NCBI GenBank assembly: GCA_965261345.1
Contig: OZ253449.1
Location: 32,001 to 96,000 of the forward strand
Reading direction: 5' to 3'
DNA from: Chloroflexota bacterium
Lineage (GTDB): Bacteria; Chloroflexota; UBA11872; VXNJ01
DNA length: 64,000 nt
Of the stretch, positions 19,333 through 63,657 are shown one piece after another (position 1 is the stretch's first letter; every line of letters starts with the position of its first letter). The notes below the pieces were generated by a model, which was not told where the DNA came from, did no database searches, and saw only the letters and a program-made list of their open reading frames with translations. A program made the position numbers and the translations under genes.

Positions 19333-19360
19333 GTCCAATATATTGAGTAATATGTCTACC
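19333..19360 (+). other. dif-like (XerC/XerD) site, left boundary of module copy 1
   Basis: GTCCAATATAT-TGAGTA-ATATGTCTACC. Confidence 0.6.
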
Positions 19361-19661
19361 GGCAGCGATTGAATCCGCGGACGAGGGTGTTTTTCCTGAG
19401 GGGATTTGGGTCATTACTTCTACGACCCAATTGCATGCCAATGCAGCTTAATGCGCCGTTTGGTTAGTTCTCGGGGAAGACTTTTTAAGGGAGGATAACT
19501 GCCGCAGAATTCCAGAAACGGCCGTTTGACCCGGCGGCGGCGGCCGGTGCAATCAATACCGATGCCACCGCCAACATTCCGCCGGCGACCGCTACTGGAA
19601 TTGGTGCACCCAATGTTGGACCCAAACTATTGCCAAGAATAGATTCGCGAATTCGCGCCTA

Positions 19662-21419
19662 ATGCAAGAGAACTTCGGTGCAATCTCAGCGCGGTCGGTA
19701 CTCGCCTGGGCTGGTCCATTGAATTACAGGCTCGGACGGTACATCGCTGCGGCAGGGGAGATATTTGATTGCCGCCGCGACGGCGCATCAATCGTAGCGT
19801 TCTGTCAGGAGATTTCGCCGCCGCCTTGGCGGGTTCAGGCGAAATTACACGGTGGCGACGTAGAAGCAGCCTCGTGCACCTGCGCGGGTGGGGCATCGGG
19901 TCGCTGCCCTCACGTTGTGGCAGTTCTGCTCGCCTTCCAATCGGACCCTGGGCGATTCGAAGCAACAAACACCCGTGATTTCGCCCTTGAGAGCCAAAGC
20001 AAATCCGAACTGATCGAAATCATCCATCGATTGCTCTCGCTACGGCCAAGCCCCCAAGATCGCCTGCAAACGTACCCGGCGTCAGTGGCCCAGGAGAACG
20101 GCCCGACCGATCTGCCGACTTTGCGGCGATACGCTTCGTACGCATTCATGGTTCGTGATTGCGAATACGAAACTGCAATCAGAGTGGCGGACGATCTTGA
20201 AAGATCGCTCAAGACTGGCAACGATTCCCTCGCGGACGGAGGCTACCAAAAAGCACACATCATTTTTTTGGCCGTGGTGCTTGCGATCCTCGATTATTCG
20301 GAGGTGGTTACGGTCCTGGTAAATCAAGACGATGGCGAGTTATTGGCAGTCCTGAAGCATGCCATCGCAAGCCTCGCGGACGGATTGATCGGCCATGAAA
20401 GCGATGCAGCCACAAGAAAAAAGGCCCTGGGAACGCTGTTCGATGCACACATGGAGGATCTCAATTACGGCGGCAGTATGTTCAGCGGCAAAGCGGGGGA
20501 GATGATTGTTGAACACGCCACCGAAGTCGAAAGGGCATCGCTAGTCGCCTGGATTCGGGGCGGAATGCCTACGGGCCAAACATGGCCGGATCACGTGCGG
20601 CGACAGTTGCGCGGCAGATTCTTGTTGGAAGTTGGCCAAAGGGACTTGGACGAGGAATCCGCACTCCAAATCTGCCGGGAATGCGGATTAGCGGCTGAAC
20701 TTACCGATCGCCTGCTGTCGTCGGGAAGATTTGAGGACGCCCTTGATGAGATCGGGAGCGTGTGGGAGTCTGATTTGCCGGAAATTGGCGAGGCTTTTCG
20801 TCGCCACGGATATGCAGACATCATCCTGCCCTGGTTGGACGAACGCTTCAAGACGCGCCGGGATCGCAAGCTCGCCGAATGGCTAAAGCGAATGCACCTC
20901 GATCGTGCGGAGTATGGGGCGGCATTGCCGATGGCGGAATTTTTGTTTGAAGGCGATCCTGGAGTCGCAGAATATCTGGAATTTCGCGACCTGGCAGTAA
21001 AGGCCGGGAAATGGGACCGGAACCGGCCGCGGGCGCTGATCAAGTTCATGTCCGCTGCCGATGTAGACCTACTTGCGGACGTTTACTTTGAAGCGGGCGA
21101 GTTCGAATCATCGGTCGAGTTAGCCGCACACTGGGACGTTGGGGATTGGTACCTGGAACGCCTAAACCAGGTAGTGGAAGAATTCGCCGAATCCAATCCC
21201 GGGCAATCGGCAGCGAATTTCCGCCGCTTGGCCGAGATTTGCATTGAACGCCGTGGTCGCAAGAACTATCAAAAAGCCTGCAAGCTTCTGATAAGAGCGC
21301 GAGATCTCATGCTGCGGATGAAACTTGATTCCGATTGGCAAGAATTCATCGCTGAGTTGCGGCAGCGCAACGATTTCTTACCGGCGTTGCGGGACGAACT
21401 AGCCCGTTTTGGGATATGA
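19662..21419 (+). CDS. SWIM zinc-finger domain protein, 585 aa
   Basis: SCTC...CPHVVAVLL; C-terminal RKNYQKA..RQRNDFLPALRDEL. Confidence 0.8.
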   Translation: MQENFGAISARSVLAWAGPLNYRLGRYIAAAGEIFDCRRDGASIVAFCQEISPPPWRVQAKLHGGDVEAASCTCAGGASGRCPHVVAVLLAFQSDPGRFEATNTRDFALESQSKSELIEIIHRLLSLRPSPQDRLQTYPASVAQENGPTDLPTLRRYASYAFMVRDCEYETAIRVADDLERSLKTGNDSLADGGYQKAHIIFLAVVLAILDYSEVVTVLVNQDDGELLAVLKHAIASLADGLIGHESDAATRKKALGTLFDAHMEDLNYGGSMFSGKAGEMIVEHATEVERASLVAWIRGGMPTGQTWPDHVRRQLRGRFLLEVGQRDLDEESALQICRECGLAAELTDRLLSSGRFEDALDEIGSVWESDLPEIGEAFRRHGYADIILPWLDERFKTRRDRKLAEWLKRMHLDRAEYGAALPMAEFLFEGDPGVAEYLEFRDLAVKAGKWDRNRPRALIKFMSAADVDLLADVYFEAGEFESSVELAAHWDVGDWYLERLNQVVEEFAESNPGQSAANFRRLAEICIERRGRKNYQKACKLLIRARDLMLRMKLDSDWQEFIAELRQRNDFLPALRDELARFGI

Positions 21420-21598
21420 CGCATTTGTACTCGGCCAAGTGTTAGCGAACCTAAGGGCAGCTTGTTTGCGGGAAGGTGCGAATTCGGCTTGCGGTTACGA
21501 GAATCTCGAAAACAGAATTAGGGTGGTTGACGATTTGGGACAATCCTGCGAGTGTCAATCAACAATCGAATCCAATTCAGACATGAAAGCCTGTTGCA

Positions 21599-21883
21599 GT
21601 GATTCGCCCGGTCGAAGCTGAACCTCGGCCCAATTACCGGTTAAGGCTTAGGTACTCGAACGGTGCCGACGGCGAGGTGGATCTTTCGCACTTGGTCGGA
21701 ATCGGCGCGTTCAAAGCCTGGAACGACGAATCTCATTTTTTGAATGTGCGAATTACGTCTTACGGTGCGGTTGCATGGGCCAATGACATCGAGCTTTGTC
21801 CAGATGCGTTGTACTCGCAGCTGCCCGGCCGAACGCTGTCGGAGTTGACGCAAGGGGAGTCTGCGCCAGCACCTAGTGCCTGA
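21599..21883 (+). CDS. DUF2442 family antitoxin-like protein
   Basis: YRLRLRYSNG..EVDLS..GAVAWANDIELCPDALY. Confidence 0.85.
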   Translation: MIRPVEAEPRPNYRLRLRYSNGADGEVDLSHLVGIGAFKAWNDESHFLNVRITSYGAVAWANDIELCPDALYSQLPGRTLSELTQGESAPAPSA

Positions 21884-22110
21884 ACTCTCCAAGTTGTGCG
21901 ACGATTACAATCCGCCTCACTTCCATGCCGCGGACGGAGTTTGAGGCCGTATACCAACTCGGCTCATTGTCAATGCTGCGGGGACGCCTTCCGCTTCGGG
22001 CCGACAACCTCGTCCTGGAGTGGGCGGCCGGGAACCAAGCTGCCATTGAATCCGCTTGGCAAAGTGTTCAAGCCAACTAGCCGCCCGCAACGATTGGATG
22101 ACCAGAAGTG
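21877..22110 (+). pseudogene. DUF4160 toxin-like remnant
   Basis: PELSK..DYNPPHFHA with internal deletion and frameshift. Confidence 0.6.
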
Positions 22111-22193
22111 CAGCAACGGATTGGTGGTGCGATTGCCGAAGACCGTGCGTTTCCGTTGTAGTCTTGTACATCCAAGCGACGTACGATTACTTC

Positions 22194-22472
22194 ATGGACA
22201 CTGAATCTAAAACTGGCCGTTGGTCGATCCGGGTTTCTCCAAGCGATGACATGATCGTGCGCCGCGTTATCGCTCGCAGCCGGATGTCACTCAACGAATA
22301 TGTCGTGCGGAACGCCGTCTCGGCCGCGATTGCCGACCTGTCCGATCGCCGGCTATTTACGCTGTCGGCGGGAGAATGGGAAGAACTGCAAAGGGTTCTT
22401 GATCGACCCACTGTTTCCAAGCCCAGACTCGCCGAACTACTAGCTCAACCCTCAGTCCTTGAAACGGATTGA
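22194..22472 (+). CDS. DUF1778 (AtaR/TacA-like) antitoxin
   Basis: WSIRVS..SLNEYVV..DRRLFTLS..EWEEL..LDRP. Confidence 0.85.
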   Translation: MDTESKTGRWSIRVSPSDDMIVRRVIARSRMSLNEYVVRNAVSAAIADLSDRRLFTLSAGEWEELQRVLDRPTVSKPRLAELLAQPSVLETD

Positions 22473-22954
22473 GTACTTACCAGGGTCCGGAACTACTTAC
22501 TGCGGACCATGACGCGGATCGCTTCGACTGCGGCGACGAATCGCTAAATGAGTGGCTCCGGCTGCGCGCGATGCGCAACCAGGGGGATGGTTCCAGCCGG
22601 ACTTGGGTAGTCGCTTACGGCGGCCGTGTAGTTGCCTACTACGCGTCAAGCACCGCGGTGCTTGCTCGCGAGACAGCCGCTGGCCGAATCAGGCGCAACC
22701 AGCCGGAACCATTGCCGGCGATGTTGTTAGGTCGCCTCGCCGTCGATCGAGATCACCAGGGAAAGGGGTTGGCCGCGGCATTGCTGAAGCACTTTTTGGG
22801 CAAAGCCTTGGAAGTGTCCGAGCTAACCGGTCTCAGATTGGTGTTGGTGCATGCCAAAAGCGCGCAGGCGGCAGACTTCTACAGCCATTTTGGTTTCCAG
22901 GCATCCTCGTTTGATGACCTCACTTTCATGCTGCTGCTTAGTGACATTCGATAG
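22469..22954 (+). CDS. GNAT acetyltransferase toxin (AtaT/TacT-like)
   Basis: FDCGDESLNEWL, LLGRLAVD..QGKGL, VHAK..FYSHFGF. Confidence 0.9.
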   Translation: MSTYQGPELLTADHDADRFDCGDESLNEWLRLRAMRNQGDGSSRTWVVAYGGRVVAYYASSTAVLARETAAGRIRRNQPEPLPAMLLGRLAVDRDHQGKGLAAALLKHFLGKALEVSELTGLRLVLVHAKSAQAADFYSHFGFQASSFDDLTFMLLLSDIR

Positions 22955-23136
22955 TCCCGATTTTGGCAGTCGTAGTCGCACCTAGAAGAGCCCCAAACAT
23001 TGGAGTCCGAATCAATTTCGCATTGCCAAGTCGAAATTAACTCCAAGCAGATCCGGCGCGTGGCCGGATCGCCCCGCACTACAAACCGCTCCCGACCCTC
23101 CCTCGCATCGCCGAAGTTCGATGCGATGGATTTAGG

Positions 23137-23164
23137 ATTGGAACTAAAAGGGGTTCGGTCTAGT
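23137..23164 (+). other. dif-like site, right boundary of module copy 1
   Basis: ATTGGAACTAA-AAGGGG-TTCGGTCTAGT. Confidence 0.45.
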
Positions 23165-23236: not shown

Positions 23237-24637
23237 TTGGCCATGGATTCCGCAATTGATCGTAATGCCATCACCGCCCGGTTTACGAGAAGGCGCGCGT
23301 TGTCTCTTATATGGGGGCTAGGCGCATCGTCTCTGCTCGCCGCCTGCGATCAGGCTGGAGCGGTAGCTCCGGTGTCGCCAACCCCCTCCCCGACACAACA
23401 GGCGCCTGCACCATCTCCGACTCCGAACGCAGATCAGGACGCGCTGCCTGCTGAACCTATACCGAGGCCGTTCGACGGGGTTGAGATCAAATTCGCGTTC
23501 CCATATTGGAATCCCACCGGAGAAGAAGCAATTCAGGCCGAAATTGTCAAGTTCGAAGCGCTTACCGGAATCTTCGTGGATCCGGATTTTTCGGGCCCGT
23601 GCACCTGGCCAAGGTCAAGTCCGTGCCCTAATCCTGACATTTGGTCCGGCCCCTCTTTGTGGTTACCACCGCTAGCATCCAGAGGCCAACTACTCGAATT
23701 AGACGATTACGTAGCCACCTGGGACGAATGGGACGATTTCTACCCGATCACAAGGGAAGACGTAACTTACGACGGCCACGTCTACGGAATCCCTTTCCAC
23801 ACTAACTACCGCGGCTCGGTTGTTTTTCGACCCTCCTTGTTTGAAGCCGCTGGTCTGCCTACCGAACCACCTTCCACCTGGGATGAGCTAAACGAAATCG
23901 CACCCAAGCTCACCATCCGCGACGGCGAGACCTTCGAGCAGGCCGGATTCAACGTGCAGCACCACTCCCAGGAATATGAGGACTGGCTTATCCAGGCCGG
24001 CGGATCGGTGTTCAATGCAGACTTGACTCAGCCGCGCAACAATACTCCTGCGGGTCACGCCGCCCTTTACCAGCATGTGCGGCACGGTCTTGTCGATGAA
24101 TCCATGCCGATTGGAGGGATGGATTCAGGCGTTCCCAACCTGCATGCCTTCTGCGCCGGCAATGTGGCTATCCAGCAACTCTGGCCCGGCTGGGTTAGCA
24201 ACTGCGAGAACCAAGCCCCCGAAGTTTTTGCCGACCTGGAGGTAGGCCCACCTCTTCAGGGTCCCCGCCAAAGGGCGATGCAACTTTACGTCATCCAATA
24301 CATGGGCAGGAAGCTGACCAAGCACCCTGACGCGGTGTTTGAAACCTTAAAGTACTTTTCTTCATCAGGCCCCAACTACGAAATTTACGACCACCGCGAT
24401 CGTTACATGCCCTGCCGCATGGCGACGGAGGATTACGACCTATATGCATCCGACCCTTGGAAGACATTTGCCAGCAACGTCAAATTCACCCAGTTGCGCC
24501 AGGTCTTGCCCGTGCATATCGACATCCAATCGGCGATGAGCCGCTTGGTGGAGCCAGCCGCTCTTGGTGAGGTCTCGGTCGAAGAGGCGCTGGAGGGAAT
24601 GGACGAGAAGATTCTGGAGATCATGGCCGGATCTTGA
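23237..24637 (+). CDS. Extracellular solute-binding lipoprotein (carbohydrate ABC type, Tat-like signal)
   Basis: TRRRAL..LLAAC; DGHVYGIP, PPSTWDEL. Confidence 0.85.
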   Translation: MAMDSAIDRNAITARFTRRRALSLIWGLGASSLLAACDQAGAVAPVSPTPSPTQQAPAPSPTPNADQDALPAEPIPRPFDGVEIKFAFPYWNPTGEEAIQAEIVKFEALTGIFVDPDFSGPCTWPRSSPCPNPDIWSGPSLWLPPLASRGQLLELDDYVATWDEWDDFYPITREDVTYDGHVYGIPFHTNYRGSVVFRPSLFEAAGLPTEPPSTWDELNEIAPKLTIRDGETFEQAGFNVQHHSQEYEDWLIQAGGSVFNADLTQPRNNTPAGHAALYQHVRHGLVDESMPIGGMDSGVPNLHAFCAGNVAIQQLWPGWVSNCENQAPEVFADLEVGPPLQGPRQRAMQLYVIQYMGRKLTKHPDAVFETLKYFSSSGPNYEIYDHRDRYMPCRMATEDYDLYASDPWKTFASNVKFTQLRQVLPVHIDIQSAMSRLVEPAALGEVSVEEALEGMDEKILEIMAGS

Positions 24638-26732
24638 GACTGTGTGACCAACGTCAATGAATCTGCCCGAGTACCGTTGATTCACCCAAAAATTCGATCG
24701 AAGCCGCGAGTGATTCAATCCGACGCGCATGATAGCCGCCGGAACCGGCCGAGATGTGGAAGTAGGCGGTCGCAGGTGGATTCTGGATGCGATTCGCCGC
24801 TCCGAAAGGCGATTCAACGAGAGCTCCCCTGGCAACGGGCGCAGCCGGTACGAATGACGCCTCAGCGGACGCCCGCCCCGAGACGGGACAACGAATTGGC
24901 CCCTGATCCGCCTCGCAGGTCGAAAACGACAGAAGCCGGATTACCAACGCCATTACCCATCGACACAACGCTCGATTAGCGATCGTGGCCCGCCACGTGG
25001 TGTAACAGCTCCAGCCTGCTGACGAATTAACGCCAGCAGCGCACGGTAAATAAAAGGGCCACCGTGCGCTCCTCAAAATGAAGAAACTTCACCTTCTTCA
25101 TCGAGGAACCATCGATGGCCCAAGATCATTATGCTGCCCTTTTCACCAAGCTGTCCGAGGAGGGCTTTGACAGCCGCGAGTTCGTCCGCCGACTCGTCGA
25201 GCGCGGCCTCCAGGATTTAATCGACGCCGGGGTGGCCGCCCACATCGGGGCGGACCCCCACGAGCGCACTGCGAGACGCACGAACCGCCTCTGGCGGCAA
25301 GCGCACCCGCACCCTCCACCACCCAGGCCGGCGACATCGCGATCGACCTGCCCAAGCTGCGCGCGGGCAGCTGGTTCCCGGAGTTCTTAGAACCGCGCCG
25401 GCGGGTCGATCAGGCCCTGTACGCGGTGGTGATGACCGCCTACATCAGCGGGACTTCCACCCGCAAGGTGGACCGGCTGGTGAAGTCCCTGGGCTCGGGA
25501 CACGGCATCTCCAAGTCTTAAGGTGCCAGCGGATCTGCAAGCGCATCGACGCCCAGGTAAAGGCCTTCCGGGAACGCGACCTGGGACTTGCCAACTACCC
25601 CTACCTGTACCTGGACGCCACCTACGTGAAGGCCCGCCACCGCCACCAGGTCCGCTCGCGGGCGCGGGCGCTGGCCATCGGAGTCACCGGCGACGGCCGC
25701 CGCGAGGTGCTGGGCTTTGCCGTCGGCGACGGCGAGGACCTGCCCTTCTGGGAGGACTTCCTTAGCTCACTGGCGGATCGGGTCCTTACGGGGGTGAAGC
25801 TGGTGATCTCGGACGCCCACTCGTCCATCAAGGCCGCGGTGCGGACCCGGCTGCCGGGCGCGGCCTGGCAGGCCTGCCGGATCCACTTTGGCCGCAACAT
25901 CGCCCGGCGGGCCGGCTGCCGGCCGAACCAGCGCCGGGCGATGGCCGCCTTCTCCACCATCTACAACCAGGCCGACCGCGAAATGGCGGTAGCCCGCTAC
26001 CACTACTTCGCCGCGGCGATGGAGAAGCTCGCCCCGCGCCTGGGGGACTACGTCGACGACAGAGAGGTGGAGCTGACCGCCTACGCCGATTTCCCGCCGG
26101 TGCACTGGCGGGAAGATCTGGTCCACCAATCCCCTGGAGCGCCTCATGGCCGAGATCTGAGCGGCGCAGCCGGGTGGTGCAGATCTTCCACGGGTGACGA
26201 ATCGGTCGTGCGCCTGGCGGGGGCGATCCTGTGCGAGCTCAAGCGACGAATGGATCGCCTCCGAGCGCCGCTACATGTCCCAGGAGTCGATGCGGCAGAT
26301 CGGGAAGGTGGTGGCCCACCGTGACGATATCGACGGGCAGACCGGGCAGCTGGTGGCGGCGCCCAGGGACTGGGCCCTGCAAAGAGCCAAAGAGATCTAC
26401 ATGTAGACGGCCGGCGGCGGGATGAGCTCTCCGCCGTCTCCCGGAAGGGCTGCGCGCCCGAGGGTCCCCGGGATCGGTGCGCCCGGCGATCCCGTTTGGC
26501 GATGCGGCACGGGGCACAATTGGGCTGCGGCCGCACTGCCGCACGAAAACACATCCACTCAGCAGGATCAGCGCCCCCGGAGAGTCTCCTACAACAACTG
26601 CCGGCCCTTGCCGGCAGCATCGGCCTCGAGGCCGATGCTGCCGCACCCCATCAAAGTAGAGGGAGCCGGACTTACTTACACCTACCGAGGGGACACGTGA
26701 ACAACGCCGGTTACTTCTGCAGGGAACGTCAG

Positions 26733-27506
26733 TTACTTTTGCAGAGTTTTCTCCCGGATTATTTCCTCCTTCTCTAGCCCAGTCCGGTAACTGGGTACGT
26801 CAAATTCAAGCACCACGGCGTGATGGACGATTCGGTCGGCCGCCGCCGCGGTGGCCATCGGGTTGGGAAAGATCTTGCCCCATTCGCTAAAGACCAGGTT
26901 CGAGGTGATCCCAATCGAGCGCCGCTCGTAGCGCTCGGCGATCAACGTAAACAGCACCTCGGCCTCATCGGTCCCCTGCGGCAGGTAACCCAGATCGTCG
27001 ATGATGATCAGGTCGATGTAGTCGAGCTTGCGCAACAGCCGGGGCAGTTCCAGGTCGCGCTTGGCCGCCAGAAGTTCCTGCACCAGCCGGTAGGCGGGTG
27101 CAAACAGCACCGATCGGCCGTTCTCGACCAGCTTGTGTCCGATCGCACACAGGGCATGGGTCTTGCCGGTCCCGGGCAGGCCGAAGGCCAGGACGTTGAC
27201 GGCCCCGTCCAGGAACTGACCCTCGAGCAGGTCCTGGAGCTGGGCGCTGAGCGGCGGCGGCAGGTTCTGGCGATCGAAGTTGTCCCAGGTCTTCCCCGGC
27301 GGGAGCTTGGAGGACTTGCGCAGCCGGTCCACCCGGCGCTGGCGCCGATCGTCCATCTCCTGGCAGAAGACTTCGAGCAGGGTATCGAGCGCGTCGACAT
27401 GACCGGCATCTACGAAGCGCTCAACCGCCTCGGTCCCGATCGTGGGCAGCCGCAGCTCCTTGCACATGAGCTTTATCTGCCGGGCGGCAACGGATGGCGC
27501 GGTCAT
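26733..27506 (-). CDS. istB: IstB ATPase
   Basis: GLPGTGKT, IIDDLGY, TSN, DRIVHH. Confidence 0.95.
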   Translation of the reverse strand: MTAPSVAARQIKLMCKELRLPTIGTEAVERFVDAGHVDALDTLLEVFCQEMDDRRQRRVDRLRKSSKLPPGKTWDNFDRQNLPPPLSAQLQDLLEGQFLDGAVNVLAFGLPGTGKTHALCAIGHKLVENGRSVLFAPAYRLVQELLAAKRDLELPRLLRKLDYIDLIIIDDLGYLPQGTDEAEVLFTLIAERYERRSIGITSNLVFSEWGKIFPNPMATAAAADRIVHHAVVLEFDVPSYRTGLEKEEIIREKTLQK

Positions 27507-28993
27507 CGTCGGGCCCCGGTAAGCAAACGATCGTAGATTGCCAGGTCGGGTGTTGCCAGGGATGCCAGCTCGGGTATCGACGGCGAGCGCGGCGCGACCA
27601 GATCGCGCACGTCCTGACAGTCGAAGCGCTCGCCCTTATCCAGGAGTCCGGCCAGGGCCCTGGCCACGTCGGCCTCCATGGTTGTGGCCGCCAGTTGCAG
27701 GATGCGCAGGTAATTGACGTCGGCGCTGTGCCGGCCGCGCCACCCCAGGAGCGCATCGTAGGCGCGGCGGAAGGTAAGGGTGGGAAAGAGCTGGTCGCGC
27801 CAGCGGTAGCGGGCAAATGCGCCCGGTTTCCTAACCAGCGAGGCGATTACGTGGCGGTAATTGACGCGGGCGCGCCGGGCGCCGCTGACGCGCTCGATGC
27901 GCTCGATGAAACTTCCCTTGTAGTAGACGTCCAGGTGCTCGGGGTAGAGACGGGCTTCCACCTTTTGCCCGATCAGGCGCGGTGGTACCGTGTAGGTGCG
28001 ATTGGAGACCCTGATGGTGCTCCATTTGCGCACCCGAGCCTGGTACGTGACGTAATCGGGCAGGGGAGTCGGCGGTAGGGGCCGAAGGTGTGAGCGCTCA
28101 ATCTCCGTCCTGGCCGCTGCCGCCCGGTTCTTTTTGTCGACTATCGCCAGCACGAAGTCCCGGTAGTCGCCGACGCAGTAAAAGTCCGAACTCCCGCGCA
28201 GCAGCAGCTCCTGCCGCAAAAGATTCTTCATCCGCCGGTGGGCCTGCTCCACGACCCCGTTCTCGTGCGCCTTGCGCGGATTGGTGCGAGTTGACTTTAA
28301 GCCGTAGTGCTCCAGAAGCTGGCGATAGGTCCGGTTCAGGGTCCGGCCGCCGGTCTTCCGCAGCTCGTGGGTGACCGCCGAGAGGTTGTCGGAACGGATG
28401 ATCTGCGGGGTCCCGCCCAGCTCGTAGAGAGCGTGCTGCAATCCCGACTTGAGGGACATGAAGCTCTCGGTCGAGGAAAGCTCGACGTAGCGCCACCCGG
28501 AGTGGGAGAGCACGAACTCGAACAGGAGATGCGGGAAGGGCGTCCCGGCGATCGTCACCTCCAGCTTGCTGGCGCTGGTGAAGTCCAGCTGCGCCTCCCT
28601 TCCCGGCGGATGGACCTGGGGGAAGTAGACCTCCCGGTCGGGGCCGGAGAGCGCCCGCCAATCGCGGACCCGGCGCTGCAGGGTGCGCAGTTGTGCTGAC
28701 GAGAACCGATCCGGGTACTTGCCGCAGAGCCGCTCCAGGATGGTGGTGGCCTGCAGTACCCCGTTGCGGTCGCTTTGCAGGAGCGGCACGACCTCCTCTT
28801 CCCATACCCCTCCGAAGGGATCGGGGTGGGTGCGCCAGTGGCGATCTTGCCTTTTGCTATCGGACGGGAGCTTCCCTTCGCGCCAGTTATGGCCCGAGCG
28901 CGCGCTCATCCCGGCCGCCGCCGCGGCGGTGGCCATCTTCTTGCCTTGCATCAGTTGCAGCCTCAGTAGTGTGACTTGTCGATCGGTGACCAA
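27503..28993 (-). CDS. istA: IstA transposase
   Basis: AQLDFT, SDNLS, ENGVVE, YTVP. Confidence 0.95.
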   Translation of the reverse strand: MVTDRQVTLLRLQLMQGKKMATAAAAAGMSARSGHNWREGKLPSDSKRQDRHWRTHPDPFGGVWEEEVVPLLQSDRNGVLQATTILERLCGKYPDRFSSAQLRTLQRRVRDWRALSGPDREVYFPQVHPPGREAQLDFTSASKLEVTIAGTPFPHLLFEFVLSHSGWRYVELSSTESFMSLKSGLQHALYELGGTPQIIRSDNLSAVTHELRKTGGRTLNRTYRQLLEHYGLKSTRTNPRKAHENGVVEQAHRRMKNLLRQELLLRGSSDFYCVGDYRDFVLAIVDKKNRAAAARTEIERSHLRPLPPTPLPDYVTYQARVRKWSTIRVSNRTYTVPPRLIGQKVEARLYPEHLDVYYKGSFIERIERVSGARRARVNYRHVIASLVRKPGAFARYRWRDQLFPTLTFRRAYDALLGWRGRHSADVNYLRILQLAATTMEADVARALAGLLDKGERFDCQDVRDLVAPRSPSIPELASLATPDLAIYDRLLTGARR

Positions 28994-29171
28994 ATCGGCG
29001 CCTCCAGTCGGGAGATCTCCAATCAGTCATATCAATAGGGCTGCAAAAGTAACTGTCGTCAGTTCTGCAAAAGTAACTGCCGTCGAACAGACACGACCCG
29101 ATTAGCAAGTGTCAACTGAATTCCTTGAGAAAGCTAGCGTTGTCGCGAATGAGCATTCGGTCAAACGGGGC

Positions 29172-29199
29172 ACAAGAGCAAATCGCAATTATGGAAACC
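29172..29199 (+). other. dif-like site
   Basis: ACAAGAGCAAA-TCGCAA-TTATGGAAACC. Confidence 0.45.
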
Positions 29200-29470
29200 G
29201 GTCAATCAATCGTGGCGGAAGTCGACGAATTGGCCGGGGAGATTCTGGAATTTGGCAGGGTAGCAACGAATTCCGCTCTTGGCGGTTCTTGCTTTCCTGC
29301 TGGGCGCCCACACCATTTCACCAAGTGCGGCCCATATCTATGTAGCGCAGTGATTCAACTGGATTGGGGCCGGTAGCCCAATTTCGTAGTTGCCTGCCCA
29401 TCAACTGGCGTTCAATAGTTGCAGGTAGGTGCTGACTGCGCCAGCCACCTGCAAGCGAGGCTTAGGAAAC

Positions 29471-29671
29471 CTAAACGGTCTCAAATTGCAGCGACGTCAG
29501 GTTTAGATGCGGGGATCGTTCCGAGAGGCGGTGCAACTCGATGCCCACTACTTCATCGGATTCATTGAAATCGAGGAATACTCCATCCCTGACCTCTTCG
29601 GATTCGACGATATTCGAATCGTCAAGCCGCAAATAAAGGGCATCAGTCTTCGTGTCGACACTCAACTTCAT
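29471..29671 (-). CDS. DUF2283 family antitoxin-like protein
   Basis: DALYLRL..ESEEV..GVFLDF..VVGIE. Confidence 0.85.
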   Translation of the reverse strand: MKLSVDTKTDALYLRLDDSNIVESEEVRDGVFLDFNESDEVVGIELHRLSERSPHLNLTSLQFETV

Positions 29672-29702
29672 AGGGGACCTTTCATCGCTCGATCGAAAAA
29701 TG

Positions 29703-32305
29703 TGTTCGCGGACACTAGAAACTGTCCGGACGCGGACACGAAATCTGTCCGCTCATGGCCACCAAAACTGTCCGCTAGCGGACAGTTTTTACAGTGCCCA
29801 ATTCCGCTGATCCCTCCTCATTGTTTTTCACTATCAGGTCAGCGGCAACACCCCTTTCCCGGCCGTGGCCTTAAGTCAACCGGATACTATCGCCCTGGGT
29901 TAGCACCACATGCGCATGGTGGAGCAATCTGTCCACCGCGGCATTGGCAATTGCCTTGGGCATGAGTTCGTCAAACCCGGCCGGATGCAGGTTGGACGAG
30001 AGCGCGATCGACCTGGTCTCGTAGGCCGCATCGATAACCCGGAAGAACGCTTCGGCGGTCTCAGTAGCCACCGGCAAAAGCCCGATGTCGTCGATGACGA
30101 TCAGGTCGGCCTTGAAGGATCCTTAAGATCGCCCTGCCGATGGAGTAATCGACGCTGTGGCGCCTGGCCAGCGATCCCAATTGCTCAAGCGAGAACCAGG
30201 AGACTTTGCGCCCATCCTCGACCGCCAGCTGCCCCAAACCCTCTAGGAAGTGGGTCTTACCGGTACCGGACGGCCCGCAGACGACCAGGTTCTCCCTGCG
30301 CTCGATCCACTCCAGCGTCCTTAGCGCCCGTTGCGTGGGAGCAGGGATCGAAGACAGCTCTTCGTCCCAGGCGTCAAAGGTCTTGCCGGTGGGAAACCCG
30401 GCCGCCTGGCGCCGCAGCCTTACCGACGATGCCGCCCGGCCGGCGATCTCCTCAGTGAGTAATGCCTTGACCGCCTCGGCCGGATCCCAGCGTTGCGCCT
30501 TAGCGGTTGCCAAAAGATCGGGGGTGATCCGGCGCATGTAGGGAAGACGCAGGATCCTGAGCTGGGATATGACCTCGTCTACCAGGGCGCTCATCGGGAA
30601 TCACCCGCCATCCCGAAGTCCTGCCAACCGGACGTGCCGCTTTGGAGCAGGGAGCTATCGCCGGCGCGGCGGCGACTGCCCGACGCCGGCGACTCGATGA
30701 TGGAGGCGATGTCGCCGAAGCCGAAGCGCTCATGGTCGGCGGCAATCCCCAGGGCCCTGTCGACTGTTTCGCTGCGGTGCAGACGTGACAGGGTCACGAT
30801 CTCATCCAGCTTGGCTCCAATTCTTCCCGACCCGCTCTGGGAAGCTTTGAGCAACCAGCGCTCGGCGTTGGTACCAATCCCCAGGAACGCTCGCTCGCGC
30901 TCGGTCCTAGCTTGCGGCCGGCGCCGGAGTGATCCCGGTGGGGCGGCCGGGAAGTGGGAGGGATCGATGACTCTTCTTCCCGGCAAGGCGCAGCGGTGCC
31001 TGGCGACCTCGGTTAATCCGCCGGCTGCGGGCGCGACAACTACCAGCTCGTCACCCTCTGGCCGCACCCATACGGTCTCGTCGGCGAAGGCATGAGGAAC
31101 CGAATATTGGGCCCCGCCGAAGCTGATCAGGGAGGTGCAGTTGGCCCTGCGGGTTACACCGAAGGCGACGGTAAACGGCGATCGCGGCAGGGGATGCAGG
31201 GAACTTTGCTCTTGGCTGAGCATCTGATCCGGGGCCTGGGCGGTGATACGGTGCTGGCGGGCGTTTACGGTGTCGGTGAACGCCTGGCAGGCGCCGACCA
31301 GCTCTGCCCAGGAAGAGTAAGCCGGCCGCAGGTTGGCGGTGGTCGGCACCAGGTCGGCCTTGGCGATCCTCACTGTTGCTTCGGATCCACCCTTGGATTG
31401 GGGATCAGCCGGTTGGCAGGTGGTGATCGTGGTGCCGTAGTGGGCTCCGCAGGCGACCATGAGCGGGTGTCTTACCGATATGCCGGCGATGTGCTCGGTC
31501 GTAACCGTCTTCTCGTTGTCGGTTAGCCAATAGGTGGGAACACCGCCGAAGGAGTGCATGGCCCGGTCCAGACAGGCAATTACGGTCTCCAATCTGCGAT
31601 CGCGCACCGGGATGACCACCCGGAAGCGCGACCACGCCAGCCAGGCACAGAAGAGGGAGGTCCTAAGCCCGTTTATCCGGGGACCCTCGCCCCAGTCCCA
31701 CCCAAGCCCACATCCCTGGCTCGGTCACCCAGGGCCGGAAGATGCGGCGGTTGTCTTTGCGGTGAGAGCGCTTGGCTTCGGCGACCGCTCTTCTGACCGT
31801 GCGCTCGGATCCGGCAAAGCCCATCGCCTTGAGCTTCTGATGGCAAATGTCGGCCCTGACGTTGCCCTTAGAGCGGGAGATCCACTCCTCGATCTTGGGT
31901 CGGTAGGGGTCGATCTTGGAGGGACGCCGTTTGGGCGACCTGGTTTGCAGTTGACCGCGGGCACGCCGGGCAACGTAATCGGCCACGGTCACATGCGAAC
32001 AGCCGCAAAGTCGGGCAGCCGCCTTATATGAACCGGTCAGGTCGAATGCTTCAAGAATTTTCATTGCTTCCTCATGAGACTTCATATGCGACCCCTGCTT
32101 GGTGATGCGCGTCTTGCATGACTCGCAAGTCAAGCAGGGGGAGCACCCGGCGCAGGTCATTTCCTCGCCGGGATTAAATCGTTGTGCGAGGAGAGATCAG
32201 GCGGTCAGGGGCACGCTCTCAAATGGCCGCCAGCGGACAGTTTTAGTGACCGCCAGCGGACACTTCTCATGGCCGCCACCGGACAGAAACCAATGTCCGT
32301 CCACA
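29703..32305 (-). mobile_element. IS21-family element 2 (istA and istB frameshifted), inserted in a DUF4258 gene
   Basis: Ends TGTTCGCGGACA / TGTGGACGGACA; 5-bp TSD AAATG; LTDNEK, SKGGSE, GPSGTGKT. Confidence 0.9.
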
Positions 32306-32749: not shown

Positions 32750-32777
32750 GGGTAAATTACTAATGATTATGTCTTGT
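32750..32777 (+). other. dif-like site
   Basis: GGGTAAATTAC-TAATGA-TTATGTCTTGT. Confidence 0.55.
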
Positions 32778-34122: not shown

Positions 34123-34150
34123 ATGATAGGCATTAATGATTTTGTCTAAT
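34123..34150 (+). other. dif-like site
   Basis: ATGATAGGCAT-TAATGA-TTTTGTCTAAT. Confidence 0.55.
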
Positions 34151-35399: not shown

Positions 35400-35427
35400 C
35401 TACCTCGAAATGGTAATTACGTAAAAC
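35400..35427 (+). other. dif-like site
   Basis: CTACCTCGAAA-TGGTAA-TTACGTAAAAC. Confidence 0.4.
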
Positions 35428-37883: not shown

Positions 37884-37911
37884 GCTAGAAGTAATAGAGG
37901 TTAGGTCTAAC
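37884..37911 (+). other. dif-like site
   Basis: GCTAGAAGTAA-TAGAGG-TTAGGTCTAAC. Confidence 0.55.
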
Positions 37912-38832: not shown

Positions 38833-38860
38833 ATTGAGCATCTTCCCTATTATGTCTACC
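38833..38860 (+). other. dif-like site
   Basis: ATTGAGCATCT-TCCCTA-TTATGTCTACC. Confidence 0.6.
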
Positions 38861-39817: not shown

Positions 39818-39899
39818 CCCAGCCTTGATGGTTACCAATTGGATCTGGATATTCAAATTGCAATCGCCCGGCTGATCCAGATGTTTGCTGCACCAGCCC

Positions 39900-40644: not shown

Positions 40645-40672
40645 ACTAGGTATATTCGCAATTATGTAAATC
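40645..40672 (+). other. dif-like site
   Basis: ACTAGGTATAT-TCGCAA-TTATGTAAATC. Confidence 0.6.
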
Positions 40673-40685
40673 AAGGGCGAGGCCT

Positions 40686-41420: not shown

Positions 41421-41448
41421 GCCATTTGAACTCAGTATTATGTCTAAT
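41421..41448 (+). other. dif-like site
   Basis: GCCATTTGAAC-TCAGTA-TTATGTCTAAT. Confidence 0.6.
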
Positions 41449-42180: not shown

Positions 42181-42466
42181 TCACAGCCTTGACCGCGAAT
42201 TCCTCCGGATTATCCGCGTTTCACGGGCGAAATTCTGGCAGCCTCTGGCTTTCGGCGCGGCGACAGACTCGTCGCGCAGCTGACGGAATTGCCGTCGAAA
42301 TAATGTTCGACGGGTGATCGACATTAGGGACGAGCAACCGCATTCAGCCGCCCACGCTGCCGAGCGGGGAGTTGAGGCAGGGGTGATTCCTCTGCGGCTC
42401 AGTGCGATACAGCGCAATCGCGCTAGCCTTCTGGGGAAGGATCGACCACTGCGGAAGCGCCACTAC

Positions 42467-43911: not shown

Positions 43912-43939
43912 GGCGATCATATTCGCCATTATGTCGATT
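43912..43939 (+). other. dif-like site
   Basis: GGCGATCATAT-TCGCCA-TTATGTCGATT. Confidence 0.65.
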
Positions 43940-44028
43940 ACGGACATGCGTCGGCGTTGAATTGTGGGTGGTCCGCTGTATCGAATCGCTTGGGCAAAAG
44001 CAATACCCGCCCAAGTGCGGGCGCCTGT

Positions 44029-44352
44029 CTAAACGATGGCAGCTCGATCGCGCGCCTGGTCCGTTTCGGCAGCAGGCTTAGTTGGCAGTTGATTAATCAA
44101 CGTCCCCATGTCGTTTGTAGCCTGCACCAAATCGAATTGGGTTTGCAGATTCAACCAGAACTGCGGATCCATTCCGAACCAATGCCCTAGCCGCAACGCG
44201 GTGTCGCAACTGATCGATCGGCGGTGGGCCATGATTTGCGAAATTCGATTTGCGGGCACATCCAATTGCCGAGCAAATTCAGTCGCCGATATCCCCATCT
44301 CGGCAATTTCGTCTTTGAGGATTGCTCCAGGATGCACTGCTCGCTTAAACAA
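44029..44352 (-). CDS. higA: HigA antitoxin
   Basis: VHPGAIL..DTALRLG..FWLNLQ. Confidence 0.92.
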   Translation of the reverse strand: MFKRAVHPGAILKDEIAEMGISATEFARQLDVPANRISQIMAHRRSISCDTALRLGHWFGMDPQFWLNLQTQFDLVQATNDMGTLINQLPTKPAAETDQARDRAAIV

Positions 44353-44373
44353 CGTAGTCCGCCTTAGCCGAAA

Positions 44374-44658
44374 TTAGTGGTAGTTAACGATCTTGACCCG
44401 GGAGGGACCTGCTTGGCCAACAGGCCACCTAAAGCAGATTCGCCACCGGCGATTAATCCTGATTGAGTATTGACCACGACGCCGACCGCCAAGTGACTCG
44501 AGGCGATTGCTGGGCAGCGCCCGCAACGATTCGATAGAAGCGGCGGCATTGAGAATCGATAGGCGTTTCGCAGCTTGCTGCTCAATCGACTCAAACTCCC
44601 TAACAAATTCCCCACTTGCAAACCTCTCGGTCCGCTTATCTGCGTAGTCGACGATCAT
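44374..44658 (-). CDS. higB: HigB toxin
   Basis: NRLESL.G.R.GQYSIRIN.RWRICF.W. Confidence 0.92.
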   Translation of the reverse strand: MIVDYADKRTERFASGEFVREFESIEQQAAKRLSILNAAASIESLRALPSNRLESLGGRRRGQYSIRINRRWRICFRWPVGQAGPSRVKIVNYH

Positions 44659-44857
44659 CTCCGATGATTCTCGGTCAATAGACGCAGTACGTCAAGCGTA
44701 TATTGAGATCGCCATCGATGCCTGTCGAATCCCAGACAAGGTGAAATCGGAGACTCTTGCACCTGCCCGAGGCGCCAAGGAAGTATTCAGACCCGGGAGT
44801 TAGTTCCTGGCTTGATGCTGATCCCGGTCAATGCAGCAGCTTCTATAGGCTGCGATC

Positions 44858-44885
44858 AGAAACAGGAATAATGATTATGTCTAAT
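44858..44885 (+). other. dif-like site
   Basis: AGAAACAGGAA-TAATGA-TTATGTCTAAT. Confidence 0.6.
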
Positions 44886-45760: not shown

Positions 45761-45788
45761 GAGTTGCGTAAGGAGTATTATGTCTACT
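45761..45788 (+). other. dif-like site
   Basis: GAGTTGCGTAA-GGAGTA-TTATGTCTACT. Confidence 0.68.
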
Positions 45789-49155: not shown

Positions 49156-49183
49156 GCTCGTCAAATGCGCCATTATGTCCATC
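49156..49183 (+). other. dif-like site
   Basis: GCTCGTCAAAT-GCGCCA-TTATGTCCATC. Confidence 0.55.
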
Positions 49184-55340: not shown

Positions 55341-55368
55341 GTTGAGGGTCATAGGGATTATGTCGAAC
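55341..55368 (+). other. dif-like site
   Basis: GTTGAGGGTCA-TAGGGA-TTATGTCGAAC. Confidence 0.55.
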
Positions 55369-55394
55369 GCTGAATCCAGAGGAAATCCTCAATA

Positions 55395-58863: not shown

Positions 58864-58891
58864 TATTGCCATAATCGCCATTATGTTGAGT
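58864..58891 (+). other. dif-like site (closest to canonical)
   Basis: TATTGCCATAA-TCGCCA-TTATGTTGAGT versus E. coli dif GGTGCGCATAA-TGTATA-TTATGTTAAAT. Confidence 0.72.
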
Positions 58892-58937
58892 GCGCGACAA
58901 GTCCGAGCCAAATTCGGTGAAGCACCCCATCGTACTA

Positions 58938-59222: not shown

Positions 59223-59223
59223 G

Positions 59224-59804: not shown

Positions 59805-59832
59805 GTTGGATCTAATGAGTAACATGTCTACC
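59805..59832 (+). other. dif-like site, left boundary of module copy 2
   Basis: GTTGGATCTAA-TGAGTA-ACATGTCTACC. Confidence 0.6.
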
Positions 59833-61891: not shown

Positions 61892-62081
61892 CGCATTTGT
61901 ACTCGGCCAAGTGTTAGCGAACCTAAGGGCAGCTTGTTTGCGGGAAGGTGCGAATTCGGCTTGCGGTTACGAGAATCTCGAAAACAGAATTAGGGTGGTT
62001 GACGATTTGGGACAATCCTGCGAGTGTCAATCAACAATTCATTCAGTCGGCGGTCCCGGGTCGACATGAAAGCCTGTTGCA

Positions 62082-62366
62082 GTGATTCGCCCGGTCGAAG
62101 CTGAACCTCGGCCCAATTACCGGTTAAGGCTTAGGTACTCGAACGGTGCCGACGGCGAGGTGGATCTTTCGCACTTGGTCGGAATCGGCGCGTTCAAAGC
62201 CTGGAACGACGAATCTCATTTTTTGAAAGTGCGAATTACGTCTTACGGTGCGGTTGCATGGGCCAATGACATCGAGCTTTGTCCAGATGCGTTGTACTCG
62301 CAGCTGCCCGGCCGAACGCTGTCGGAGTTGACGCAAGGGGAGTCTGCGCCAGCACCTAGTGCCTGA
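62082..62366 (+). CDS. DUF2442 protein, copy 2
   Basis: As 21599-21883. Confidence 0.85.
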   Translation: MIRPVEAEPRPNYRLRLRYSNGADGEVDLSHLVGIGAFKAWNDESHFLKVRITSYGAVAWANDIELCPDALYSQLPGRTLSELTQGESAPAPSA

Positions 62367-62676
62367 ACTCTCCAAGTCTTGCGACGATTACAATCCGCCT
62401 CACTTCCATGCCGCGTACGGAGTTTGAGGCCGTATACCAACTCGGCTCATTGTCAATGCCGTGGGGACGCCTTCCGCTTCGGGCCCACAACCTCGTCCTG
62501 GAGTGGGCGGCCGGGAACCAAGCTGCCATTGAATCCGCTTGGCAAAGTGTTCAAGCCAACGAGCCACCCACAACTATTGGATGAACAGAAGTGCAGCAAC
62601 GGATTGGTGGTGCGATTGCCGAAGACCGTGCGTTTCCGTTGTAGTCTTGTACATCCAAGCGACGTACAATTACTTC

Positions 62677-62955
62677 ATGGACACTGAATCTAAAACTGGG
62701 CGTTGGTCGATCCGGGTTTCTCCAAGCGATGACATGATCGTGCGCCGCGTTATCGCTCGCAGCCGGATGTCACTCAACGAATATGTCGTGCGGAACGCCG
62801 TCTCGGCCGCGATTGCCGACCTGTCTGATCGCCGGCTATTTACGCTGTCGGCGGAAGAATGGGAAGAACTGCAAATGATTCTTGATCGACCCACTGTTTC
62901 CAAGCCCAGACTCGCCGAACTACTAGCTCAACCCTCAGTCCTTGAAACGGATTGA
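62677..62955 (+). CDS. DUF1778 antitoxin, copy 2
   Basis: As 22194-22472. Confidence 0.85.
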   Translation: MDTESKTGRWSIRVSPSDDMIVRRVIARSRMSLNEYVVRNAVSAAIADLSDRRLFTLSAEEWEELQMILDRPTVSKPRLAELLAQPSVLETD

Positions 62956-63437
62956 GTTCTTTCCAGGATCCGGAACTACTTACTGCGGACCATGACGCGG
63001 ATCGCTTCGACTGCGGCGACGAATCGCTAAATGAGTGGCTCCGGCTGCGCGCGATGCGCAACCAGGGGGATGGTTCCAGCCGGACTTGGGTAGTCGCTTA
63101 CGGCGGCCGTGTAGTTGCCTACTACGCGTCAAGCACCGCGGTGCTTGCTCGCGAGACAGCCGCTGGCCGAATCAGGCGCAACCAGCCGGAACCATTGCCG
63201 GCGATGTTGTTAGGTCGCCTCGCCGTCGATCGAGATCACCAGGGAAAGGGGTTGGCCGCGGCATTGCTGAAGCACTTTTTGGGCAAAGCCTTGGAAGTGT
63301 CCGAGCTAACCGGTCTCAGATTGGTGTTGGTGCATGCCAAAAGCGCGCAGGCGGCAGACTTCTACAGCCATTTTGGTTTCCAGGCATCCTCGTTTGATGA
63401 CCTCACTTTCATGCTGCTGCTTAGTGACATTCGATAG
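62952..63437 (+). CDS. GNAT toxin, copy 2
   Basis: As 22469-22954. Confidence 0.9.
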   Translation: MSSFQDPELLTADHDADRFDCGDESLNEWLRLRAMRNQGDGSSRTWVVAYGGRVVAYYASSTAVLARETAAGRIRRNQPEPLPAMLLGRLAVDRDHQGKGLAAALLKHFLGKALEVSELTGLRLVLVHAKSAQAADFYSHFGFQASSFDDLTFMLLLSDIR

Positions 63438-63629
63438 TCCCGATTTTGGCAGTCGTAGTCGCACCTAGAAGAGCCCCAAACATTGGAGTCCGAATCAATT
63501 TCGCATTGCCAAGTCGAAATTTACGCCAAACAGATGCAGCGTGTGGCCGGAACATCCGCGTTGTCCCGCACTGCAGATCGCTCCCGACCCTCCCCCACTT
63601 TGCCGAAATTCGATGCGATGAATCTGGTA

Positions 63630-63657
63630 ATTGGAACTAATAAGGGATATGCCTTGT
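63630..63657 (+). other. dif-like site, right boundary of module copy 2
   Basis: ATTGGAACTAA-TAAGGG-ATATGCCTTGT. Confidence 0.5.

Follow-up and report, generated by a model that had tools for sequence, protein, structure and literature searches.

A row of toxin-antitoxin and candidate defence cassettes beside the dif site of a Chloroflexota chromosome, probably built by Xer recombination

The stretch of DNA analysed here, called the window throughout, comprises 64,000 nucleotides (positions 32001-96000) of a Chloroflexota genome that is one contig of 2,393,548 bp and 95% complete (GenBank assembly GCA_965261345.1, contig OZ253449.1; G000 below). It holds a row of cassettes of about 1-4 kb, which encode toxin-antitoxin pairs, candidate anti-phage genes and genes of unknown role. 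The cassettes are separated by 28-bp sites of an 11-6-11 layout, each with a variable left arm, a six-base spacer and a conserved right arm. The conserved arm is also that of a palindrome outside the window, which we take to be the chromosomal dif site, and we call the window sites half-dif sites. A preliminary description, made from the letters of the window alone, had proposed a long cassette array with 18 co-oriented dif-like sites, built by the Xer recombinases of the host. The comparisons reported here, largely with three complete genomes of the same genus (G002, G003 and G006), support such an array, with Xer recombination itself as the step that we infer from sequence.

Strings of the 11-6-11 layout were read at all 18 coordinates of the preliminary description. 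Their common core is A-TTATGTC-[T/G]-A-N-Y-R. In most sites the spacer before the core has T as its first and A as its last base, and a weak T-A-[A/T] stands next to it at the inner end of the left arm. The exact heptamer TTATGTC had 10 matches in the window against 3.39 expected, a count reached in none of 100 shuffles; nine of the ten were on the + strand, all of them at 18748-55358. A probe independent of the window sites, the 12-mer ATTATGTCTAAT taken from the right arm of dif outside the window, gave nine matches with up to two mismatches against 1.05 expected. All nine were on the + strand, and again no shuffle among 100 reached this number, which confirms the presumed enrichment over shuffled controls. 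A 14-nt position weight matrix (PWM) had 15 matches of at least 14 bits on the + strand and none on the - strand, where a first-order Markov model gave a mean of 0.62 per strand. The matrix was trained on 15 window sites and dif, so circularity affects this count in the window, though not the counts in other genomes. The single orientation of the sites claimed at the outset was upheld.

The list of sites itself needed some revision. Fourteen of the 18 scored at least 13 bits with the PWM, but four were weak (35400, marginal at 12.0 bits; 29172, 8.6 bits; 63630, 4.6 bits; 23137, 4.2 bits), and three further sites had been missed. Sites 23137 and 63630 have poor right arms, yet each is a genuine 3' end of a cassette that is present in duplicate. 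The pairs 19333/59805 and 23137/63630 had been counted as independent sites and proved to be the ends of one 3.8-kb cassette that is present twice. Sites 29172 and 35400 are doubtful as genuine sites.

The left arm had been described as variable. This was correct, but the arm is not random, and over 100 distinct sites from three genomes it weakly kept the sequence of the inner dif arm, with A at -10 in 55%, T at -9 in 57%, A at -8 in 61% and A at -7 in 50%. The information content did not exceed 0.73 bits per position in the left arm, against about 2 bits in the right arm. In the same set, T occupied spacer position 1 in 66% and A position 6 in 90%. The most frequent spacers were TCGCCA (9), TAATGA (9), TCGCAA (5), TGGTAA (4), TCAGTA (4) and TAAAGA (4). 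The statement that the sites lie outside genes held only roughly: 31 of 49 G000 sites fell mostly outside open reading frames (ORFs), against 14% of random positions, as judged by a crude ORF caller. One variable arm, GCCATTT[G/T][A/T]AC with spacer TCAGTA, ends several different cassettes almost unchanged (for example window 41421; G000 genome 2,388,094; 64360, 67066 and 77921 of the G002 stretch). Such a common arm suggests that cassette 3' ends fall into families, as attC sites do.

All sites described in the following are on the + strand, and gene assignments are from Pfam unless PADLOC is named. The leftmost site, AACGTCTACCG-CGGTGA-TTATGTCGAGT at 18731..18758 (20.5 bits, with an exact TTATGTC), is one of the three that had been missed. 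Site 19333..19360 (17.1 bits) forms the 5' boundary of the first copy of a cassette that we call the SWIM cassette (19344..23147, + strand; delimited by alignment to its second copy). It encodes a SWIM-finger protein of 585 residues (19662-21419; weak PADLOC match to PDC-S62), a DUF2442 protein (21599-21883) and a TacA-like antitoxin with a GNAT toxin (22056-22954), and its 3' boundary is the decayed site at 23137..23164, with left arm ATTGGAACTAA. A stretch with a solute-binding protein gene and insertion-sequence (IS) debris follows at 23237..32160. It contains an IS256-type fragment (25626-26324), IS21 istA/istB (26733-28993, - strand) and an IS21 fragment (30591-32160, - strand). The weak site 29172 lies within this stretch and is without comparative support.

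The spacer TAATGA, which is the dif spacer of the opposite strand, occurs in site 32750..32777 (17.7 bits) and again in site 34123..34150 (20.7 bits). The cassette that precedes the latter has a HicB-like antitoxin gene (33502-33759, - strand), and the one that follows it is a PDC-S11 cassette (34253-35176, - strand; PADLOC, E 1.3e-76). The marginal site CTACCTCGAAA-TGGTAA-TTACGTAAAAC at 35400..35427 has a recurrent spacer, found in four sites, and a similar left arm and spacer occur at position 119759 of the G002 stretch (genome about 1,659,759). Site 37884..37911 (14.8 bits) starts a 4.3-kb block in common with G002. Inside the block, site 38833..38860 (20.4 bits, identical in G002) stands before an RHH/PIN pair (39174-39817, + strand) and a Phd/PIN pair (39900-40559, - strand), and site 40645..40672 (15.4 bits, spacer TCGCAA) before a cassette with a DUF2442 gene (40939-41244, - strand). 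The next site is GCCATTTGAAC-TCAGTA-TTATGTCTAAT at 41421..41448 (24.0 bits). The block ends at 42225..42252 in a decayed site, also absent from the earlier list, of which only the left arm is left in G000; its G002 equivalent is the strong site GGGCGACATTA-TGGTAA-TTATGTCTAGT. Between the RHH/PIN and Phd/PIN pairs, at 39839/39840, G002 and a contig of the public metagenome run X1 have 1.95 kb of extra DNA with a half-dif site of its own. G000 may have lost a cassette junction here by deletion, which would have fused two cassettes.

Farther right, the HigBA cassette (43923..44868, - strand) has site 43912..43939 (21.2 bits) as its 5' boundary. It holds a HigB-like toxin gene (44374-44658, - strand) and a neighbouring small ORF, and site AGAAACAGGAA-TAATGA-TTATGTCTAAT follows at 44858..44885 (24.0 bits). 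Site 45761..45788 (22.8 bits) precedes a cassette with an HNH nuclease gene (46772-47728; also HNH by PADLOC) and a gene for a DEDDh exonuclease with a superinfection-immunity domain (48034-49053, - strand; PADLOC PDC-S48). After site 49156..49183 (17.2 bits) come the gene for a UvrD/GajB-like helicase of 952 residues (49704-52562; PADLOC GajB-like) and an IS21 copy (52827-55180). Beyond site 55341..55368 (21.1 bits) come two small ORFs and then the gene of a GmrSD-type restriction enzyme (56324-58777; GmrSD_N and GmrSD_C, PADLOC Orf5 and HEC-06). The inner left arm is well kept in site TATTGCCATAA-TCGCCA-TTATGTTGAGT at 58864..58891 (17.9 bits), where another Phd/PIN pair lies at 58890-59634. 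The second SWIM copy (59816-63640, from alignment to the first) extends from site 59805..59832 (13.1 bits) to the decayed site 63630..63657, again with left arm ATTGGAACTAA. The last site, GGCAGCCTACT-GCGGGA-TTAGGTCAACC at 63731..63758 (14.9 bits), is the third that had been missed. A 110-nt direct repeat of 76% identity (45447-45556 and 55931-56040) ties the cassette of a 241-residue ORF (44910-45635) to a pair of ORFs of 93 and 148 residues (55395-56119). These two look like paralogous cassettes.

The toxin-antitoxin content between the sites thus consists of TacA/GNAT, HicB, RHH/PIN, two Phd/PIN pairs and HigB. The candidate defence genes are PDC-S11, the HNH nuclease, the DEDDh exonuclease/PDC-S48, the GajB-like UvrD helicase and the GmrSD-type enzyme, and the DUF2442 proteins and some proteins without a Pfam match make up further content. 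Cassette genes occupy both strands, and IS21, IS256-type and other insertion-sequence debris interrupts the array. Pfam and PADLOC revealed no replication or virion genes in the annotated window cassettes, and Pfam no tyrosine recombinase.

The pattern becomes clear from a sequence outside the window, at a distance of 30 kb to its left. This is a perfect palindrome of the 11-6-11 layout, ATTAGACATAA-TCATTA-TTATGTCTAAT, at genome 1555-1582, and its right arm is the conserved arm of the window sites. The curve of cumulative GC skew is lowest near 1.18 Mb and highest near 2.28 Mb-0; the palindrome lies in the region of the maximum, with the minimum opposite, and is therefore placed at the skew terminus. 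A single 24-kb BLAST alignment to G002 crosses the contig ends, showing that the contig is a closed circle; this stretch (G000 2,381,324 to 11,787), which spans dif, is 96.4% identical to G002, against 64-79% for core DNA. The pattern TAGACATAA-N6-TTATGTCTA, with up to two mismatches, occurred in 10 of 41 genomes, G000 included. Among the relatives it was present in 9 of 18 genomes of the family and in 0 of 22 of the sister family, and a reversed-pattern control gave none. Exact copies are present in G002, G003 and G006, and the palindrome occurs once per genome in G008, G009, G011, G013 and G015. In four genomes of sister genera, the half-site ATTATATCTA is confined to the single palindrome, once on each strand in 3.0-3.6 Mb. 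Given the location at the skew terminus, the conservation in the genus and the one copy per genome in the sister genera searched, we take the palindrome to be the chromosomal dif. Two window sites contain literal halves of it. Spacer and right arm of site 44858 (TAATGA-TTATGTCTAAT) equal the half of the G000 dif of the opposite strand over exactly 17 nt, and those of site 41421 (TCAGTA-TTATGTCTAAT) equal the G002 dif half, also over exactly 17 nt. The dif spacers of the two genomes, TCATTA and TCAGTA, are one base apart. The likeness to dif that had been proposed from the window alone was thus borne out by the dif of the host.

The strand of the sites follows the side of dif on which they lie. 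Of the PWM matches of at least 14 bits in the G000 genome, the first 250 kb hold 36 of the 60 on the + strand and 2 of the 32 on the - strand, and a smaller - strand cluster was seen across dif at 2.27-2.39 Mb. At least 47 sites lie at -121 to +215 kb of dif in this 2.39-Mb chromosome. The array noted in the window continues far beyond it, and is two-sided and mirror-symmetric around dif. In the region from -150 to +260 kb, 44 of 47 non-dif sites in G000 had the strand expected from their side, and in G000, G002 and G003 pooled the agreement was 97 of 107. For exact ATTATGTCKA half-sites it was 25/25 in G002, 21/22 in G003 and, by linear position, 8/11 in G006; the G003 exception is the second arm of another full site, and the three exceptions in G006 are more than 1.1 Mb away. 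Polarity thus flips at dif in G000 and in its three complete relatives. The same strand switch was seen in contig C5 of G005, and two fragmented, 80%-complete genomes of the genus had few sites. On either side the sites are hybrids, with the dif-like arm distal to dif and the variable, weakly dif-like arm proximal to it. A second two-armed site, with spacer TTACCA, occurs at G003 1,696,126, at G000 genome 2,355,777 and at 23,526 of G005 contig C5. It is perfect in G003, 44 kb from dif, and the polarity flips only at the TCATTA site.

Two cassettes were each found in three contexts, with homology breakpoints that lie within the 28-bp sites. The SWIM cassette (3.8 kb) is present twice in the window (19.3-23.1 and 59.8-63.6 kb) and once in G003, where it is inverted, lies left of dif and is 94% identical; the G003 copy was the only one that a search of the genome contigs with the SWIM protein returned. 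In the three copies, homology starts at the spacer TGAGTA and the cassette's own arm variant A[T/C]AT[G/T]TCTACC, while the left arms upstream differ. It ends past the left arm [A/G]TTGGAACTAA and its spacer, and the sequence outside is unrelated. The left arm ATTGGAACTAA at the 3' ends is identical in both window copies and nearly so in G003. The HigBA cassette (0.95 kb) also has three contexts with unrelated flanks and left arms, and a common spacer and right arm. Besides the copy in the window, there is an inverted G003 copy left of dif (97.9% identical) and a second G000 copy at 166.3-167.3 kb (91.6%). Across contexts, species and sides of dif, a cassette keeps the conserved arm (with or without the spacer) at its dif-proximal end and its own variable arm (likewise) at its distal end. 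Core synteny shows G000 and G003 to be co-oriented on both sides of dif, so the inversion of the G003 copies is real.

Window 37.9-42.2 kb has about 98% identity to an inverted G002 stretch left of dif. The homology begins at GTAA-TAGRGG inside site 37884, where the outer left arms are unrelated, and ends at the strong G002 site that in G000 has lost its right arm. Over three dif regions, 8 of 30 homology-block ends had a site no more than 25 nt away, where random placement gives 1.6%. These ends come from 15 single-copy rows among 47 BLAST rows (at least 88% identity and 300 nt); the 32 multi-copy rows, which are IS copies and the SWIM and HigBA families, were left out. The two cassettes with three contexts each and these eight block ends bear out the expectation that cassettes are gained and lost at the spacers; two insertions in G002, to which we return below, do not. 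Cassettes are 94-98% identical between genomes and core loci only 64-79%, from which the cassettes would appear to have spread horizontally between species of the genus.

Public sequencing runs were examined as assembled contigs, in which uncovered parts of X1, X6 and X7 are not evidence of absence. In X6 and X7, contigs start at 37895, which is the base that opens the spacer of site 37884; in X1 and X7 they start at 43923, the corresponding base of site 43912. These starts, which come from two studies, and the contig that bridges the 1.95-kb insertion are weak hints in support of recombination. Apparent 'skip' joints in the contigs had sides of just 21-49 nt and could not be interpreted, and a skip from 39839 to 41417, considered as a deletion, fits a short match between two similar sites instead. 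A scan of viral contigs for the palindrome returned two unrelated loci with GC contents of 70% and 36%. The exact palindrome was found at 84 metagenome loci with GC contents from 23 to 70%, mostly in unrelated organisms, which is uninformative either way; PWM matches around these loci were without polarity (left, 23 - and 25 +; right, 21 + and 32 -).

Only two PF00589 proteins were found in G000, and both are Xer-like. The protein of 303 residues matched XerD best in NCBIfam (210 bits), below the equivalog cut-off, and that of 335 residues scored 143 bits with XerC and 137 bits with XerD, also below the cut-offs. No integron integrase was found in the G000 genome, where TIGR02249 scored 64 and 58 bits against a cut-off of 265. 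The preliminary description had seen neither an integrase nor attC in the window. This also holds for the recombinases of the whole genome, and no attC-like inverted partner was found at the sites. There are two PF00589 proteins in G002, two in G003 and three in G006, and 11 and 20 in sister-genus genomes. The genome also encodes FtsK with a gamma domain.

The gene of the 335-residue recombinase has an orthologue 1.7-2.3 kb from dif in the sister-genus genomes G013 and G015. In the genus of the window, its distance from dif is about 270 kb in G000 and roughly 430-470 kb in G006, with G002 and G003 between them at about 310-350 kb. Displacement of the gene by cassette growth was considered and rejected, since the DNA in between includes core regions at 2,125-2,145 and 2,200-2,220 kb of G000, which show synteny within the genus at 67-79% identity. 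A dif-like half-site, TTATGTAAAGT or, in G002, TTATGTAAACC (G000 genome 2,125,290-2,125,330), stands directly before the start codon of this gene in each of the four complete genomes of the genus. The half-site has a T...A-type spacer with unrelated sequence upstream, and the same 11-mer lies upstream of the G013 orthologue. This arrangement hints that the 335-residue protein recognises dif-like arms. The half-site itself may be an autoregulatory site or a relic junction.

Left of the array lie IS110 copies, a group II intron, an IS4-like element and an inverted duplication. The intron occupies window 12570-14384, with Rfam RF02005 domains D1-D4 at 12570-12792 (162 bits) and a reverse transcriptase/maturase ORF at 12957-14384. 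The duplication is perfect, with arms of 3,348 bp at 1076-4423 and 5509-8856 that are 100% complementary and 1,085 nt apart. Each arm encodes a large serine recombinase of 688 residues and an ORF of 305 residues without family match. It may be an invertible or composite element.

Taken together, these observations make it probable that the window is part of one arm of a two-sided array of non-autonomous cassettes at dif, built by Xer recombination. A cassette circle that carries a site V-spacer-A', with V the variable and A' the conserved arm, would recombine with dif (A-spacer-A') or with an existing hybrid site, the enzyme presumably being a Xer-type tyrosine recombinase of the host. The inserted cassette would then have a full dif next to it and, at its distal end, a crippled V-spacer-A' site, so that the array would grow outwards from dif, as the Vibrio arrays discussed below do; the crippled sites would keep the cassettes fairly stable. 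By analogy with an integron, dif would take the role of attI, the hybrid sites that of attC and Xer that of IntI, with no common promoter.

Several observations weigh against this model of Xer-built arrays. Both the 5' and the 3' junction spacers are constant among the three copies of each mobile cassette. A model with one circle and one spacer does not predict this, and would need targets with the same spacer or mixed resolution. The sites right of dif carry TAATGA, while the G000 dif reads TCATTA on that strand, so these junctions do not simply stem from dif as it now stands and is oriented. Such misfits might be accounted for by cassettes that entered at secondary sites, by a mixed outcome in the resolution of heteroduplex spacers, or by inversions that span dif. 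Furthermore, 22 of the 30 homology-block ends lie away from sites, and two insertions specific to G002 (246 nt and 1.95 kb) are off-site. No circle junction or excision joint was seen in the assembled contigs of the public runs. BLAST searches of plasmids and phages with the cassettes identified no vehicle; the single match in the plasmid collection covered 117 nt of a Phd antitoxin gene at 72%, and phages gave none. Finally, TTATGTC is skewed between the replichores outside the arrays as well, by 57 to 21 (73%), which ranks 11th of 7,931 heptamers, and some other chromosome-wide role of the half-site heptamer is possible. Word skews in G000 are weak overall, the strongest being only about z=4.6.

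A more far-reaching version of the Xer model is plausible to us as a working idea, though we would not yet call it probable. In it, dif would be the capture site of an integron-like system without a dedicated integrase. Xer, possibly a single enzyme acting on the palindromic dif, would insert promoter-bearing toxin-antitoxin and defence cassettes on either side, and an arm of dif, perhaps with its spacer, would be replaced at each insertion by that of the cassette, so that an essential site is continually rebuilt from mobile DNA. The order of acquisition would run outwards from dif, the cassettes would come from a pool shared by species, and the chromosome-wide polarity of the half-site would be a by-product of this traffic or a safeguard for it.

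The alternative that survives best accepts that the 28-bp sites recombine mobile cassettes and assigns the reaction to another enzyme: a serine recombinase, an unrecognised recombinase, or RecA-type recombination on the short arms. We consider this unlikely. Two identical genes for a large serine recombinase of 688 residues do lie beside the array (1076-8856), and both Xer-like proteins score below the NCBIfam equivalog cut-offs. However, the sites have the 11-6-11 core layout of tyrosine recombinases and include literal dif halves, and the arrays are centred on dif, with a polarity flip exactly there in four genomes. The 17 identical bases of a junction are also short for homologous recombination.

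The replichore skew of the heptamer (57 to 21, rank 11 of 7,931) favours another alternative, in which the conserved arm would mainly be a polar signal of chromosome organisation, such as a guide or landing site for Xer/FtsK that points to dif and is densest near the terminus, like the FtsK-orienting polar sequences (KOPS); cassette borders would coincide with it only because it lies between genes in a variable region. The rise in half-site density towards dif and the presence of FtsK with a gamma domain fit this idea as well. However, sister genera with the same kind of dif have zero extra half-sites, implying that the motif is not a general requirement. The breakpoints of the mobile cassettes lie inside the sites, and each cassette travels with its own arm variant. 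The spacer ends and the bases of the inner left arm are also kept, and this indicates whole degenerate core sites rather than single words. A guide of this kind is thus an improbable account of the sites, in contrast to hybrid sites left by recombination.

The motif is AT-rich, intergenic and contains ATG, and a related half-site abuts the start codon of one Xer-like gene, so we also considered a promoter, an operator, a translation-start context or a chance pattern. This is very improbable. The ATG opens only short frames at both sites that were read (44858 and 55341), and the strand of a site follows the side of dif rather than gene direction, the same cassettes being inverted across dif. 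On these two grounds a start-codon or Shine-Dalgarno context was rejected, and the enrichment far exceeds that of the shuffles. Least credible of all is the idea that the motif belongs to attC, in an integron of the classical type or in an attC cluster without integrase (CALIN): the content is cassette-like and rich in toxin-antitoxin pairs, and GTCTAAY can be likened to what we take to be the inverse core-site consensus RYYYAAC, but the genome has no integron integrase and only Xer-like PF00589 proteins, cassette genes occur on both strands, and the best inverted core partner within 160 nt of a site matched at 5-8 of 9 positions, the same as in 500 random controls; the idea was rejected for the lack of IntI and of such a partner.

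A few phages and satellites of Vibrio and other bacteria are known to exploit Xer, as are the resistance modules of Acinetobacter. In the present genus this principle seems to have given rise to a large store of cassettes on both sides of dif, which holds toxin-antitoxin and anti-phage genes and is common to several species; we found no literature on such arrays in Chloroflexota within the open-access literature. If the Xer-built array is real, gene capture of the integron kind can arise without an integron integrase, and defence genes of such genomes could predictably be looked for in the surroundings of dif. It would also offer a natural system for how an essential site tolerates constant remodelling. 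Polar half-dif sites around a palindromic dif form a genomic signature by which more such systems might be recognised.

The palindromic arms of this dif resemble those of XerS/difSL, XerH/difH and archaeal XerA/dif. XerS and XerH form dif-xer modules, with the recombinase gene near dif, and the sister-genus orthologue of the 335-residue protein is likewise near dif. Unlike these single-recombinase systems, however, the present genome has a second Xer-like protein, most like XerD, and in the genus of the window the 335-residue gene is far from dif. Sedentary chromosomal integrons are long arrays of single-function cassettes rich in toxin-antitoxin genes, with a capture site at one end, weaker secondary sites and exchange between species. 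The arrays around dif share with them the length, the small toxin-antitoxin-rich cassettes, a primary site with weaker ones and the exchange between species. They differ in that no IntI and no attC hairpins were found, a common promoter is absent, genes are encoded on either strand, the essential dif of the chromosome serves as the capture site, and cassettes stand on both sides of it.

The preliminary description had compared the window to the Acinetobacter modules, while noting that the sites of the latter are inverted. According to PMC12907356, such modules are small, lack a recombinase and have a 28-bp site of the Xer type at either end; they often carry toxin-antitoxin or accessory genes, stand in rows and are shared between replicons. 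Their sites alternate between C/D and D/C with both arms recognisable, and a chromosomal island of them lies about 1.1 Mb from the main dif (PMC12907356). Here, by contrast, the sites are direct on each side of dif, one arm is degenerate and the arrays adjoin the main dif; the Vibrio elements are closer. The latter are integrative mobile elements exploiting Xer recombination (IMEX). According to PMC9226527 and bioRxiv 10.64898/2026.06.12.731946, the IMEX of Vibrio cholerae (CTX-phi, TLC-phi and VGJ-phi) have no recombinase of their own and an attachment site with one degenerate arm, a new dif forms beside each integrated element, and the order of integration in an array can be read from the distance to dif. 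The arrays described here similarly start at dif and have directly repeated dif-like junctions composed of element and dif halves. Unlike IMEX, they consist of cassettes of 1-4 kb, of which the annotated ones are without phage or replication genes and show no autonomous episomal form such as a phage, satellite or plasmid. They have dozens of sites instead of a few, in mirror-image arrays on both sides of dif, both arms of that dif are identical, and the host belongs to a genus of Chloroflexota. By analogy, the closest precedent is thus the IMEX array at the dif of Vibrio rather than the Acinetobacter module, and the system would work like an IMEX array and, functionally, like an integron.

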